A DNA stretch of 42,561 bases from a virus. The DNA lies in the UHGV virus genome UHGV-0163196. One strand, written 5' to 3'. A model generated the notes under the pieces. It saw only the letters and a program-made list of their open reading frames with translations, was not told the DNA's origin and did no database searches. This document shows positions 1-42,561 of the stretch, piece after piece. The translations under genes and the position numbers were made by a program. Each line of letters opens with the position of its first letter. Position 1 is the first letter of the stretch.

Positions 1-485
1 GAGTAGAACCCTGCTTCTTTACAGGTATCACCAATTATCGCGTTGGTTAATCCAAGGTATGTGAGAATGTCAGCAATAGTATTTTTCCCAATAATGTCAC
101 GGCCAACAGAAGTTAAATCAGTCTGCGCTGCTGTATCATTTCCAGTGAAATATGGGAGTTTATTTGCACCTGTTGCGAGCCCAGCTAATGCCGACAGCGT
201 GGCATCAAGCGCCTGGAAATCTTTCCCGAAAGCGGTCCCCATTTTGGATATAAACCCGTTCATGTCTCCATCATCAAGCACATCCAGCCTGCTTTTGTTG
301 GCGGTGTACTGCGCCAACGCTGCCGCGATAAAGCTGGCTTGCCGAATAGCTTTGTTGACCTGTGCGCTGGATGCTTTACCTGCCGTAAACCCTGAAAGCA
401 GAGCCGGAAGTGCTTCCCAGTCAGCTTGTGAGGTGACGTTAGCGTTCGGATCAAGCGCGAAAGGTTTAAAGTTGTTTATTGCCAT
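1..485 (-). CDS. Tail fiber protein, N-terminal part (gene runs off the window start)
   Basis: Minus-strand ATG at 483-485 overlaps the stop of the upstream baseplate gene (TAATG). Hand translation begins MAINNFKPFALDPNANVTSQADWEALPALLSGF, which resembles phage tail fiber N-termini. Not in the ORF track because no stop lies inside the window. Confidence 0.45.
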   Translation of the reverse strand, partial: MAINNFKPFALDPNANVTSQADWEALPALLSGFTAGKASSAQVNKAIRQASFIAAALAQYTANKSRLDVLDDGDMNGFISKMGTAFGKDFQALDATLSALAGLATGANKLPYFTGNDTAAQTDLTSVGRDIIGKNTIADILTYLGLTNAIIGDTCKEAGFY

Positions 486-1165
486 TAGAGTATTGTCCCC
501 CATGCTCCAACATCGAACCCGCCGATGTATTCGTTATCCATATCAAACCCAAAGAATTTAGAGCCCTCGGATGGTGCTTCTACCGAAGGCGTTTCAACAT
601 CACCGGCCCATACGCCAGCTGCTTTAACGGTGAGATAGCCCTGTTTGATAGCGGCAATCAGTTCAAGAGACACATCAGAAATATCAGTCTCGGGGAATAC
701 CCAAACCGATATCGTCATGTCCTGGTTGTCGACAATTTGCATCCTCAGGCCTGAGCCTTCAGTCGCAGCGTCAAGGATGGGAGGCAGAGAGTCGTTACGA
801 CCGTCCCAGTTGTTGATAGCGATTTTCGCTTTCAGAATGATGCGGTACGTCTCATCGCTTAGCGTCGTATAGCCAGAATCAGGATCATATGGCCCTTGCC
901 AGATGCCCTGGTCATACCCAAGCCCGTCAGTGTCCCAGCTGAAATAAACTCCGCTAATTGGCTGGCTGACTATGCGACTGCGTCCGATCCACAGACCGAG
1001 GATGTCGAGCTGTACACCGACAGCAGTATCAATATCGAAGGCTGTTATAAGCCCTGACATAGTGCTGGACACATCAATCAGCGGGCGGGTGCTCAGATCT
1101 ATATGGTCAAAAAAGAGTGGCTTGGTAGCGTGGTAGTTAGTGATCAGTTCGGTGTATTTGCTCAT
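485..1165 (-). CDS. Baseplate protein (P2 gpI / Mu gp48-like)
   Basis: 226 aa ORF, tightly coupled to the flanking baseplate genes on the same strand; position after the J-like gene matches the P2/Mu baseplate order. Confidence 0.5.
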   Translation of the reverse strand: MSKYTELITNYHATKPLFFDHIDLSTRPLIDVSSTMSGLITAFDIDTAVGVQLDILGLWIGRSRIVSQPISGVYFSWDTDGLGYDQGIWQGPYDPDSGYTTLSDETYRIILKAKIAINNWDGRNDSLPPILDAATEGSGLRMQIVDNQDMTISVWVFPETDISDVSLELIAAIKQGYLTVKAAGVWAGDVETPSVEAPSEGSKFFGFDMDNEYIGGFDVGAWGTIL

Positions 1166-2361
1166 GAGGTCACCGTGATACTGATATTCGCGGTGCTACA
1201 GGACGCAGAAGCATCATAGGCAATATCAATGTTTGATGCCGATACGCTGCCAGACGACTTACCGATCAGCAGGTCGGTAATATCGTAATAGCGGGCATTC
1301 CCGCCGCTCACAACGCCGAGGTTTGCCGGGGAATAAATACGGCTCAGCAGAACGTCGTCGCCAATTGTTAGGCCATTTATATAATCGGCAACAGCCTGTT
1401 TAATCTGCTCGCCGATTTGAGAGGTATAGCCGGTAAAAACTTTCAGGGTAATGGCTACGAAAATTGGCACATCGGTAGAGCGCGAAAAACTGATGACGTG
1501 TGGATTACCGTAAGTATCCGGCACCGTGACAGAAGTTTTACCGTAAGTTGCGGTTCCCTGCCCTTTACTCCCCCGGATTGTTTGGGCTATCTCGGTAACA
1601 TCCCCTCCATCGACGATGGCGGAAATAGAGTGTGGCGGCAGCCCGTTGCTGTCGGTTGCCCCAGTGTCGTTCTCATATAGTTTGTGACGTGTCACGCCAG
1701 CAACATTAGCGATAGCACCGTCGACACCTTCAAACGGTGTGATCGATGGTAGCGCGACGCTTTGCCCCTGCCGAATGCGCAGCTCTGCGTCGGTTTCGGC
1801 TGGTGAACCGACAGTAGCCGCAACTGGATTGGTTACCGACACCCAACCTCGGGTCGGGGTGTTGATAGTGGTAATAGTCCCGGCCAGCGCCGCAACCGAA
1901 CCGCTATTCGCACATGTGGCCGTCACCAGCACAGTACCATCAACGCCGATCGCTACACTTGCGGGAAAATTCCAGATAATGCCGTTTTTATCCCGTGCGG
2001 AGCCATTCGTGATAGTCGTGCCTGCCGTACCGGTTAACAGAAGGTCAGCAGTAGAGTTTGTCGCTACTTTTCGCGTGATCCCGTTAATTTTCACATTGTT
2101 GCTAAGCGCTGCGGCCTGCGCTGTCGTCGGTGAAAACGAGTTGTAGATCTCGATAGCAGTATTGTTCGCGTCATGCACGGCAAGAGCCACCAGCGCGACC
2201 ATCTGCCCGTCTTTGCTGTCTGGTTCGAGGTAGGCATCACTACCGTAAATCTGCCTGAAATAGCTGGTCAGTGTATCAAGGATTGTCTGGTAATCAGGCG
2301 CACTAATCCCCTGGGCGGTTACCGTTGCCGATAGCCCCAGCGTGTCGAGGTTCAAAGCCAT
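1162..2361 (-). CDS. Baseplate J-like protein (P2 gpJ / Mu gp47 family)
   Basis: 399 aa ORF with overall resemblance to Baseplate_J family proteins; sits between the gpW-like and gpI-like genes. Confidence 0.65.
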   Translation of the reverse strand: MALNLDTLGLSATVTAQGISAPDYQTILDTLTSYFRQIYGSDAYLEPDSKDGQMVALVALAVHDANNTAIEIYNSFSPTTAQAAALSNNVKINGITRKVATNSTADLLLTGTAGTTITNGSARDKNGIIWNFPASVAIGVDGTVLVTATCANSGSVAALAGTITTINTPTRGWVSVTNPVAATVGSPAETDAELRIRQGQSVALPSITPFEGVDGAIANVAGVTRHKLYENDTGATDSNGLPPHSISAIVDGGDVTEIAQTIRGSKGQGTATYGKTSVTVPDTYGNPHVISFSRSTDVPIFVAITLKVFTGYTSQIGEQIKQAVADYINGLTIGDDVLLSRIYSPANLGVVSGGNARYYDITDLLIGKSSGSVSASNIDIAYDASASCSTANISITVTS

Positions 2362-2715
2362 TTATGCCTCGCTTGTTACAGTCGTCTGGCCGTAGATTGT
2401 GTCAATGGAGGAAGTGAAGGTGACGCGACGGCTGGTGCCGTCATAATTGGTATCGAAGGAAAGAATCGACAGAACGCCCGGTGTATCCTGTATGCGTTCG
2501 CGTATAGCCAGGATGTAGACATCTGATCGCTGCTTCCCAAGCACTGACTGAACATACGGCGTGCCTTCCGTCAGATCGAGAAACCACTGACCGCGCCACA
2601 GCTCGAAACGGGTTTTTACGGCCTGGGCGACACACTCCGGGCTGTCGATAAGGAAGGTGTCGTCACCCTGCCCGAAAGTGTAATCGCCGTCAGCATCTTC
2701 TCGTCGGTATCGCAT
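2362..2715 (-). CDS. Small baseplate wedge protein (gpW/gp25-like)
   Basis: 117 aa ORF between the spike and J-like genes; size and position fit gpW/gp25-like proteins. Confidence 0.45.
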   Translation of the reverse strand: MRYRREDADGDYTFGQGDDTFLIDSPECVAQAVKTRFELWRGQWFLDLTEGTPYVQSVLGKQRSDVYILAIRERIQDTPGVLSILSFDTNYDGTSRRVTFTSSIDTIYGQTTVTSEA

Positions 2716-41692: not shown

Positions 41693-41756
41693 TATCACCG
41701 CTAGAGGTAAAATAGTCAACACGCACGGTGTTAGATATTTATCCCTTGCGGTGATA
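41693..41756. promoter_or_regulatory. OR1-OR2-OR3 operators with divergent PR/PRM promoters
   Basis: TATCACCGCTAGAGGTA at 41693-41709 (OR1, one mismatch to lambda), CAACACGCACGGTGTTA at 41717-41733 (OR2), TATCCCTTGCGGTGATA at 41740-41756 (OR3). Confidence 0.9.
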
Positions 41757-41766
41757 GATTTAACGT

Positions 41767-42480
41767 ATGAGCGCAAAAAAGAAACCATTAACACAAGAGC
41801 AGCTTGAGGACGCACGTCGCCTTAAAGCTATTTATGAAAAAAAGAAAAATGAACTTGGCTTATCCCAGGAATCTGTCGCAGACAAGATGGGGATGGGACA
41901 GTCAGGCGTTGGTGCTTTATTTAATGGCATCAATGCATTAAATGCTTATAACGCCGCATTGCTTGCAAAAATTCTCAACGTTAGCGTTGAAGAATTTAGC
42001 CCTTCAATCGCCAGAGAAATCTACGAGATGTATGAAGCGGTTAGTATGCAGCCGTCACTTAGAAGTGAGTATGAGTACCCTGTTTTTTCTCATGTTCAGG
42101 CCGGGATGTTCTCGCCTGAGCTTAGAACCTTTACCAAAGGTGATGCGGAGAGATGGGTAAGCACAACCAAAAAAGCCAGTGATTCTGCATTCTGGCTTGA
42201 GGTTGAAGGTAATTCCATGACCGCGCCAACAGGATCCAAACCTAGTTTTCCTGACGGGATGTTAATTCTGGTTGACCCTGAGCAGGCTGTTGAGCCAGGT
42301 GATTTCTGCATAGCCAGACTTGGGGGTGATGAGTTTACCTTCAAGAAACTGATCAGGGATAGCGGTCAGGTGTTTTTACAACCACTAAACCCACAGTACC
42401 CAATGATCCCATGCAATGAGAGTTGTTCCGTTGTGGGGAAAGTTATCGCCAGCCAGTGGCCTGAAGAGACGTTTGGTTAA
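41767..42480 (+). CDS. cI: CI repressor (lambda immunity)
   Basis: 237 aa, near-identical to lambda CI (differences seen include MSAKKK and KILNVSV). Confidence 0.95.
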
Positions 42481-42561
42481 GGCCAGCAACGAATCACAAC
42501 AAACACATGGGGCGGCGGATTAAGGGTGATATGGAATAATGCAAGACAATTTCATCTTAAA

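Follow-up and report, generated by a model that had tools for sequence, protein, structure and literature searches.

Helper-embedded phage-inducible chromosomal islands (HE-PICIs), whose founder is Eco567.11capE (hereafter 11capE; Tommasini, Mageeney & Williams 2023), are satellites that reside in prophage late genes and are co-oriented with them (PMC10111431). Their genes fall into integration, Bro/immunity-RNA, replication and late zones; 11capE excised only after the composite had excised and replicated, and the published survey applied a cutoff of at least 400 bits to the 11capE integrase (PMC10111431). What is known of helper-embedded satellites so far comes from this single 2023 study, from one integrase clade and from lambda-type siphovirus helpers, and our literature search found no later papers on them. 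Here, we analysed the virus genome UHGV-0163196, a stretch of 42,561 nucleotides (nt) that we call the window at its full length and whose long open reading frames (ORFs) are nearly all on the minus strand. In all likelihood, the window is a composite of two mobile elements, namely a lambdoid myovirus helper and a 12.5-kb satellite embedded in it. The satellite spans 14740–27221, accounts for 29% of the window and has every gene on the minus strand, that is, on the strand of the late operon.

What sets the satellite apart from the phage around it? Two copies of the core CTGTACC, both read on the minus strand, delimit it: attL at 27215–27221 and attR at 14740–14746, where the right end of the satellite is joined to the capsid cement gene. 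On the minus strand, attB is AAAGGATAATCCAATGACTGCATAT-CTGTACC-GGATGCCTG, attL consists of the left half of attB followed by CTGTACC-TTATGCAACTAATATC, and attR is AATAATAGCCTTGCATTC-CTGTACC-GGATGCCTG; alignment of the three places the crossover within the 7-bp identical core. In the reconstructed attP (TTGCAT-TC-CTGTACC-TT-ATGCAA), this core lies between inverted hexamers, and TTGCAT/ATGCAA around a core is the usual layout for a tyrosine recombinase. The attB site corresponds to codons 2–9 of the cement gene. The native Shine-Dalgarno sequence (AAGGA) and ATG (27233) of that gene now precede a 27-codon stub ORF (27233–27150), and the cement ORF left after the insertion has an internal methionine, Met8, and no obvious ribosome-binding site; being cut from its native start, it gives a Pfam match that begins at profile position 8–9. 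Together, these sites show that the P4-type tyrosine integrase of the satellite carried out the insertion, through recombination of attP with attB in the cement gene. We also observed AGCGCCGTT at −222, −193, +51 (inverted) and +156 from the attP core (window 14950–14740 and 27215–27030); these copies are candidate arm-type integrase sites and differ from the published HE-PICI motif.

The empty site is found in related phages. Citrobacter phage Omnitron and Salmonella phage SEN34, both with an intact attB, remain colinear with the window as far as 14753 and resume at 27209, the 20-bp overlap being common to both junctions, and the DUF2213 and cement genes of SEN34 are 4 nt apart. Among 5426 complete E. 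coli genomes, 97 have the head-gene junction and four of these are occupied; the same four carry the satellite end to end. The remaining 93 match the phage side only, with a match that runs through the att block in these unoccupied genomes and, among those listed, with the two head genes adjacent. The element-side junction, in turn, is identical in 13 independent public loci. The exact integrase protein was present in 220 blocks of the sequence collection and, in 10 of 10 places among the matches listed, immediately followed the DUF2213 gene; as these places cover three different terminase modules, it is the site that is conserved and not the whole phage.

Evidence for the reverse reaction comes from a second contig, IMGVR_UViG_3300045988_113726 (27,870 bp), in IMG/VR, which contains the 30-nt attP exactly. 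In its first 62 nt, the int-proximal arm is joined to the DUF2280 end, with attP instead of attR. The rest of the contig matches the window at 100.000% identity over the 21,227 bp compared and ends, by offset, at the same base (42561). Reads across an excised or tandem junction thus existed in the sample, and both contigs probably come from one source, or from clonal ones, that contained the integrated as well as the excised form. A short metagenome contig, OGVK01015064.1, also has the attP junction; its flanks diverge within 60–90 nt and hold no detectable integrase, and it is uninterpretable beyond the junction. A search of the GTDB species-representative genomes for the attP pattern gave no match. 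Judged from these junctions, excision appears to be precise, regenerating attB and attP, and the excised junction exists in nature.

Within these boundaries, the satellite holds the following features:

25794–27023, minus strand: integrase of 409 amino acids (aa), P4-type, with Arm-DNA-bind_3, Phage_int_M and Phage_integrase (Pfam)
25734–25752, minus strand: strong intrinsic terminator after int (terminator prediction)
25439–25651, minus strand: AlpA/Xis-like protein, 70 aa, sub-threshold (Phage_AlpA 16.8 bits, Xis_Gifsy_1 20.5 bits)
23474–24544, minus strand: predicted lipoprotein, 356 aa, with a signal peptide and the lipobox IVS/C, Thr at +2
23206–23293, minus strand: antisense/immunity RNA of the C4 type, preceding icd (Rfam RF01695, 75 bits with a gathering cutoff of 45, E 5e-13)
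22965–23153, minus strand: Icd-like cell-division inhibitor (NCBIfam phage_ICD_like, 79.7 bits)
22094–22972, minus strand: 'Int2', an arm-less tyrosine recombinase (Phage_integrase, E 5e-11)
17697–20510, minus strand: primase-helicase, 937 aa (Zn_Ribbon_Prim, Toprim_3 and DUF927 in Pfam; phrog_1139 DNA primase, E 1e-184)
17379–17671, no strand assigned: predicted replication origin just downstream of the primase, with 11 exact GTTGGTTCA copies in both orientations and an adjoining AT-rich stretch
14970–15443, minus strand: DUF2280 protein, 157 aa (PF10045, E 7e-39)

Small ORFs lie between Int2 and the primase-helicase, and three ORFs with no significant profile match separate the iteron array from the DUF2280 gene. 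All four HE-PICI zones are thus present and in order—int with the AlpA-like gene, the C4 RNA with icd, the primase with 11 iterons, and DUF2280—and a Bro-N domain protein was not found in the satellite. The origin accounts for 11 of 11 window copies of GTTGGTTCA, with 0.33 expected by chance and none of 100 shuffles reaching 11. By tblastx, the icd region shares 47% identity with the cI/kil region of P4. Profile scans of 14 satellite ORFs (Pfam, PHROGs and NCBIfam) gave no match to capsid, portal, large terminase (TerL), tail or lysis families, nor to conjugation or mobilisation families.

The AlpA/Xis-like protein is a candidate excisionase or regulator: its positional counterpart in E. coli EC2001, in a stretch that is 89–95% identical (translated), is annotated as an AlpA family regulator. 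Between this gene and the lipoprotein gene, a 0.9-kb non-coding gap holds GCGAATC-containing repeats with 12-nt and 22-nt periods (24705–24844), which may form a regulator-binding array. Int2 keeps the catalytic R, R, H and Y motifs (R...SSR...LGH...TRTY), the first His of HxxR being replaced. Related satellites of E. coli, Enterobacter, Raoultella, Pantoea and Citrobacter have a 290–295-aa ORF of the Phage_integrase family in its position, and the protein could serve in multimer resolution or as a regulator. The 356-aa lipoprotein, for which an outer-membrane location is predicted, has conserved cysteines and 41 homologues, the named ones all from Enterobacterales. It matched nothing in Pfam, PHROG or PADLOC, and its confident AlphaFold2 (AF2) model (predicted local distance difference test, pLDDT, 83) had no fold match in the PDB; it may be a surface-exclusion or host-modifying factor. 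PADLOC found no defence system among eight satellite ORFs, its only matches being the phage Doc toxin and the homing endonuclease of the nin region.

How does this locus compare with the known systems? With HE-PICIs, it shares the placement: a satellite of 11–16 kb lies within one of the late genes of a lambdoid prophage and runs in the direction of the late operon. Also shared are an integrase and an AlpA-like gene at the upstream end, a zone with a P4/P1-type immunity RNA, a primase and an origin belonging to the satellite, and helper-derived genes in a 'late zone' further downstream. In both, attP lacks a replacement sequence, leaving the target gene disrupted until excision, and the integrase relatives repeatedly target different late genes. 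The integrases themselves differ: that of the satellite is just 21% identical to the 11capE integrase (69 bits), which, against the 400-bit cutoff, puts the satellite and its relatives outside the published survey. The doubled HE-PICI arm motif TGTATTGC-N4-TGTATTGC is absent from the window, and the doubled motif tgTGTATTGCantgTGTATTGCa, published at −81 and +132 of the attP centre, had no window match with up to three mismatches. Moreover, HE-PICI helpers are lambda-type cos siphoviruses, whereas the helper here is contractile-tailed and has a headful-type terminase, and 11capE is without a homologue of the small terminase (TerS) while the present satellite has one. The satellite's att sequences, target-gene names, accessions and Pfam names were not found in PMC10111431, its supplements or its att alignments, and its exclusion from the 14 published HE-PICI sites is based on an att-sequence search in this material and on the 400-bit integrase cutoff. 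The satellite matches the HE-PICI concept, but its integrase clade is unrelated, its site is new and its helper is a myovirus.

Gram-negative PICIs of the EcCICFT073 type and an island of E. coli G5 share with the satellite their size, the order int, alpA, regulation, pri-rep with ori and packaging gene, and the lack of virion and lysis genes. Classical PICIs, however, occupy chromosomal sites (tRNA, fis, hpt) away from the helper, whereas here the backbone is combined with a helper-targeting integrase. P4 has in common with the satellite the P4-type integrase (31%, Arm-DNA-bind_3), the Zn-ribbon/Toprim N-terminus of the primase, a C4/CI-type immunity RNA with a kil/icd-like ORF and a small regulator of the AlpA/Vis type. 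By tblastx against P4, only int, the alpha N-terminus and the cI/kil region matched, and no homologue of psu, sid, delta or epsilon was found in the satellite. The two also differ in that the helper is not P2-like and that the satellite has a DUF927 helicase domain; P4 alpha is expected to have D5_N/Pox_D5 in place of DUF927.

The G5 island is a sister element that sits at tRNA-Thr, outside any phage, and has a different integrase. Its primase, Int2, 187-aa ORF (annotated as an XRE regulator in the EC2001 counterpart) and DUF2280 protein match those of the satellite at 78–93% translated identity. In the E. coli EC2001 copy of the satellite (locus 4931–8008), the late zone contains additional helper-type Dit-like, plug, hub and spike genes, and the G5 island (locus 6869–8985) has a spike gene and two unnamed ORFs, one of hub-like size and one small. 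The window satellite carries unrelated ORFs where EC2001 and G5 have these baseplate genes, which suggests that the latter are a swappable tail-tip cassette on the satellite.

Is late-gene targeting a property of the integrase lineage? The satellite integrase, 31% identical to P4 Int, was compared together with ten relatives at 41–63% identity, sampled as representatives rather than as a census. In nine of the ten, int lies downstream of a phage late gene, which differs from case to case; for the tenth (Citrobacter), no more than the terminase region can be named:

63% identical (Enterobacter): downstream of a baseplate gene resembling gp25, in the same type of myovirus
56% (Raoultella): within the gene for the major capsid protein
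56% (Citrobacter): terminase region, where 1.1 kb separate the Terminase_2 gene from int, the site not being defined
51% (E. coli): lambda-type tail genes
50% (Salmonella): within the GpA terminase gene
47%: downstream of a Terminase_2 TerS, although of two loci listed one is in chromosomal DNA that is not phage
44% (Yersinia): downstream of a portal gene of the lambda type
43% (Pantoea): downstream of a Phage_portal_3 portal gene
41% (E. coli): head genes of a DUF4055-portal phage

An eleventh relative (41%), from a non-enterobacterial metagenome bacterium, is in a chromosomal island. Nine of the relatives scored 51–90 bits against the 11capE integrase. On balance, we lean slightly towards regarding the satellite integrase as a member of a second, undescribed P4-type clade of Enterobacterales with late-gene tropism, independent of the 11capE/HE-PICI clade. 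If true, helper embedding has evolved at least twice and extends to contractile-tailed, headful-packaging helpers, with the satellite bringing its own TerS.

The proposed TerS is the DUF2280 protein. In four helper loci, a 157-aa DUF2280 gene is directly upstream of a 540-aa TerL, which is the TerS position, and Omnitron has a DUF2280 homologue ~1.6 kb beyond the end of the portal-gene match. The satellite protein is 66% identical (aa) to those of the four loci and of Omnitron and is, by sequence and gene context, a putative homologue of the small terminase of Omnitron-type helpers. Its sequence had no match in the PDB.

By analogy with 11capE and with the biology of Staphylococcus aureus pathogenicity islands (SaPIs) and PICIs, the satellite may be activated in cis by its helper and then packaged, steps to which we give about an even chance. 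In the lysogen, the lambda-type cI would keep the composite silent. After SOS induction, the composite would replicate from the helper O/P origin, and Q-modified polymerase from pR' (~35.3 kb) would read ~8 kb of lysis, terminase, portal and scaffold genes and then past the post-int terminator into the satellite. Such read-through would lead to the integrase and the AlpA-like protein being made late. Late excision of the satellite would then restore the cement gene and allow full expression of the helper capsid and tail genes, while the satellite would replicate from its iteron origin and its TerS homologue would divert headful packaging to satellite DNA. Helper dependence and helper interference are suggested by the missing virion genes, the TerS homologue and the embedding.

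Several observations weigh against parts of this picture. The AlpA-like assignment is sub-threshold. The assignment of DUF2280 as TerS follows from gene position, PHROG lists the family as unknown, and a Foldseek search with its AF2 model (pLDDT 67) put small terminases on top but not significantly (E 0.3–3.7, TM 0.24–0.30). The resident TerS and TerL are of the phrog_370 and Terminase_3 types, not of the DUF2280/540-aa type, and because of this mismatch packaging hijack may not work in this composite. Helper dependence, late read-through, packaging and transfer of the satellite are all predictions from 11capE and from SaPI and PICI biology. The attP junction of the IMG/VR contig comprises only the first 62 nt at a contig end and could reflect a tandem arrangement or a branch of the assembly graph rather than a monomeric circle; either would need attP-spanning reads. 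Finally, the helper may be slightly decayed, given a nonsense codon in its ninB gene.

Could the window nevertheless be a single phage? The original prediction had described one mosaic prophage, in which case 14.7–27.2 kb would be a module or moron cluster acquired by homologous or illegitimate recombination. Lambdoid phages are indeed highly mosaic and carry morons, such as the Doc/Phd pair among the baseplate genes here, and HNH and homing endonuclease genes are found at mosaic junctions. Modular mosaicism with sharp junctions is thus borne out, but 29% of the window (14740–27221) is a separate integrated element, and the idea that the sharp switches mark recombination junctions suits the lambda-like blocks but not the sharpest breaks of all (14746 and 27215), which are those of site-specific satellite integration. 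A module or moron would not be expected to bring a terminal integrase of its own and a 7-bp core between inverted core sites, to be precisely absent, with no other difference, from empty sites, to occur in public data with its ends joined as attP, or to have a sister element at a tRNA gene outside any phage. The set of attB, attL, attR and attP refutes this view, which we consider very improbable. Alternatively, the insert might be a second small temperate phage, since prophages within prophages are documented for Shiga toxin and type III secretion effector prophages in E. coli (PMC8112680), and it does have an integrase and a replication module. At just 12.5 kb, however, it has no ORF among the 14 scanned that matches a capsid, portal, TerL, tail or lysis family, and the TerS homologue is its sole packaging-related gene; we find this reading barely credible. 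The lack of virion and lysis families among the 14 insert ORFs scanned, together with the att set, led us to reject both a prophage within a prophage and a plain moron cluster.

A more serious competitor, though still an unlikely one, holds that the insert is an island that targets phage DNA without being a satellite: a selfish or host-beneficial element, for instance an anti-phage or prophage-disabling 'lock', that inactivates the late operon and is transferred independently of phages. The resident terminase type, which is unlike the satellite's TerS homologue, would fit this, as would the occupation of merely four of 97 suitable sites in complete E. coli genomes, a cargo lipoprotein with no family or fold match, and the fact that the published 11capE composite gave no detectable virions (PMC10111431). 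Against it speaks the order of int, alpA-like gene, immunity RNA/icd, primase with ori and late zone with TerS, which is the layout of PICIs and P4 (PMC10111431). Related copies hold captured helper hub, plug and spike genes, none of the 14 scanned ORFs matched a family for conjugation or mobilisation, the genes strictly follow the direction of the late operon, as would be expected for cis-activation, and the excised junction comes from a virome-derived contig. We thus favour an embedded satellite in a lambdoid myovirus helper.

To annotate the window as one phage mislabels 12.5 kb and overlooks an interrupted head operon, and skews what is deduced about inducibility and completeness. New, compared with the HE-PICIs described, are the unrelated integrase lineage, the first codons of a cement gene as target, the myovirus helper and the satellite-borne TerS homologue. 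This suggests that the targeting of late genes is a strategy that recurs convergently and is not peculiar to a single clade. With the att core, empty sites, an excised junction and a close cultured relative (Omnitron, Citrobacter braakii) at hand, the model of Q-dependent read-through driving excision is directly testable.

What kind of phage is the helper? Megablast divides the window: 1–14753 matches contractile-tailed temperate phages, namely Citrobacter phage Omnitron (94% overall), Salmonella phage SEN34 and Escherichia phages vB_EcoM-689R2 and relatives, and 33.4–42.5 kb is ~97% identical to hundreds of lambdoid coliphages (HK106, mEp234, mEp506, HK022, Sf6). The lambdoid order is kept throughout—cI, OR, cro, cII, O, P, nin, Q, pR', S, R, Rz, head, tail—on the minus strand, with cI divergent. 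The immunity and early region (cI to Q) together with S and R are of the HK106/lambda type, and the virion is of the SEN34/Omnitron type with a headful-type terminase. The mosaic phage alone is ordinary, a normal product of lambdoid modular exchange. The window starts within the tail-fibre gene and ends 81 nt past cI; a host junction and the left arm (N to int) are therefore both missing from it. Among complete genomes, that of E. coli ABWA45 comes closest; in it, the same arrangement is a prophage adjoining tRNA-Arg/intS, and it is from such near-identical E. coli prophages next to tRNA-Arg, not from the window itself, that the prophage state is surmised. A scan of the whole window found no tRNA gene, and the insert thus does not target a phage tRNA.

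The head genes flank the satellite, and the tail genes follow; names on the tail side are from Pfam profiles and from the PGAP annotation of E. coli ABWA45:

31891–32646, minus strand: TerS (phrog_370), upstream of the satellite
30564–32009, minus strand: TerL (Terminase_3/PBSX type), upstream of the satellite
29095–30591, minus strand: portal, upstream of the satellite
28473–29246, minus strand: Mu_F-like, upstream of the satellite
27238–28458, minus strand: DUF2213/Pa193_gp24 protease-scaffold, upstream of the satellite
14255–14737, minus strand: capsid cement gene (PF22758/PF23982), without its native start
13302–14243, minus strand: major capsid
11033–13260, minus strand: neck and adaptor genes
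9869–11029, minus strand: sheath (DUF3383, Pfam, 349 bits)
9418–9858, minus strand: tube (KPP10_Orf10, Pfam, 202 bits)
8989–9414, minus strand: chaperone (TAC_15, Pfam)
6796–8811, minus strand: tape measure bearing an SLT domain (Pfam)
6170–6796, minus strand: Dit-like (Dit_like, Pfam)
5868–6173, minus strand: plug (Pam3_gp18, Pfam)
4771–5865, minus strand: hub (E217_gp41, a weak Pfam match of 26 bits)
3511–4349, minus strand: Doc/Phd moron, between hub and spike
2715–3452, minus strand: spike (Gp138_N, Pfam)
2362–2715, minus strand: gp25/W-like, 117 aa, in the baseplate cluster
1162–2361, minus strand: Baseplate_J (Pfam)
485–1165, minus strand: DUF2612 (Pfam)
485 to beyond position 1, minus strand: 5' part of the tail fibre gene, its frame open to the window edge

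Sheath, tube and baseplate genes had been proposed from the sequence, and the Pfam profiles are clearly those of a contractile tail, with none pointing to a siphovirus-type one. Across the virion module, nucleotide identity is 92–97% to Omnitron (82% at 4414–6924) and 65–90% to SEN34 (65–80% over 1–14737). Electron microscopy showed a contractile tail for SEN34, whose genome is lambda-like (PMC5261728), and the combination of the two is unsurprising, for it is that of an already described phage cluster (SEN34, Omnitron). The helper shares with SEN34-like myoviruses the virion gene order from portal to tail fibre and the lambdoid plan, its own morphology being predicted from its genes. It differs from them in immunity, replication, nin region, Q, lysis and terminase, which are HK106/lambda-like, and, unlike them, it has Doc/Phd in the baseplate cluster and a head operon interrupted by the satellite. 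The Doc (Fic/DOC) toxin and Phd-like antitoxin, a moron within the tail operon, are shared with E. coli ABWA45 at 100% identity, and Omnitron and SEN34 lack them. A repeat of 33 nt (2.2 copies, 32446–32520) within the 5' portion of the TerS gene of the helper is a candidate pac site.

The immunity and early right region contains:

41767–42480, plus strand: cI, lambda-type repressor
41740–41756, plus strand: operator OR3, exact lambda match
41717–41733, plus strand: OR2, exact lambda match
41693–41709, plus strand: OR1, one mismatch to lambda (lambda 38005 G>A), at position 8 of the non-consensus half
41466–41666, minus strand: cro, early right operon
41031–41327, minus strand: cII, early right operon
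39960–40859, minus strand: O-like initiator (phrog_345 'replication initiation O-like', E 2.5e-88), with 11-mer repeats at 40368–40465
38534–39985, minus strand: P, with DnaB (108 bits) and DnaB_C (204 bits) domains
38017–38457, minus strand: ninB, 98.7% to lambda ninB, with a nonsense codon 38 (GAA>TAA) and T35I
37493–38080, minus strand: Dam (N6-adenine methyltransferase, PF05869), between ninB and ninE
37152–37489, minus strand: ninE/ninF, 93.8% to lambda
36645–37154, minus strand: homing endonuclease-like, nin region (PADLOC HEase, E 2e-25), adjoining the ninE/F block
36018–36380, minus strand: RusA, early right operon
35833–36021, minus strand: ninH-like, early right operon
35318–35836, minus strand: Q (PF06530, 90 bits against a cutoff of 26)

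Lambda (NC_001416) aligns in six segments: cI-OR-cro, S-R, ninB, ninE/ninF and two short pieces. The first of these (41452–42476 against lambda 37231–38255, covering cI, OR and cro) is ungapped with 24 differences in 1025 nt (97.7%) and extends from 4 nt inside the cI stop to 14 nt past cro. cI differs from that of lambda at two of 237 residues (T3A, K71N) and Cro at one of 66 (K39N); the OL operators are outside the window. The original prediction of near-identity to lambda in cI, cro and OR is therefore supported, and neither this segment nor S-R (94.6%) is much more diverged than claimed, although the wording 'lambda-identical' was overstated. Likewise, an O-like initiator together with a DnaB-type helicase is what the phrog_345 match and the DnaB and DnaB_C domains indicate. 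The label 'P22-type replication' fits in so far as a DnaB-type helicase takes the place of lambda P, but the proteins are of the HK022/HK106 type: P shares 99% of its residues with HK106 P and 31% with P22 gp12, and O, which is 67% identical to HK106 gp51, had no tblastn match to lambda O or P22 gp18 at E 1e-3. Q was correctly placed with QuuD in that it matches PF06530 (QuuD itself scores 179 bits) and not PF03589, the only one of the two families matched by lambda Q, its identity to QuuD being merely 29% over 48% of the length.

By sequence identity, the nearest donors of these genes are HK106/HK022-type coliphages, and neither lambda nor P22 themselves. The stretch 40989–42530 (cII, cro, OR, cI) is 99.3% identical to HK106, and ninB, P and the 3' end of O are 97.7% identical to it; with S/R at 93%, these are the parts that the helper shares with HK106, mEp234 and mEp506 (Hendrixvirinae). 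The latter are siphoviruses with HK97-type virions, unlike the helper, from which they also differ in Q, part of the nin region and the 5' part of O. With its nonsense codon, ninB is either a pseudogene or carries a sequencing error. The Dam ORF as listed overlaps the 3' end of ninB, for which reason its true start is probably internal.

Late control and lysis are encoded by the following features:

35311–35340, minus strand: predicted pR'-like promoter
35250–35270, minus strand: tR'-like terminator, following the pR'-like promoter
34518–35027, minus strand: HNH endonuclease (HNH_3), between tR' and S and adjoining the end of the S block
33868–34191, minus strand: S, lambda-like
33408–33884, minus strand: R, lambda-like
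33032–33424, minus strand: Rz, of another PHROG family than lambda Rz
within 32869–33315, minus strand: embedded Rz1/LysC-like gene, of another PHROG family

That S and R would be nearly identical to those of lambda and Rz/Rz1 divergent had also been noted beforehand, and both statements agree with the data: 33433–34443 (S, R and sequence upstream of S) is 94.6% identical to lambda 44933–45944, and Rz and Rz1 both belong to other PHROG families. S has one residue change from lambda. R has 13, of which 11 fall within residues 135–158, placing the end of the lambda-like block inside the 3' end of R. The HNH gene (34518–35027) and the homing endonuclease gene (36645–37154) both abut ends of lambda-like segments, and nuclease genes at mosaic junctions are consistent with their marking exchange boundaries.

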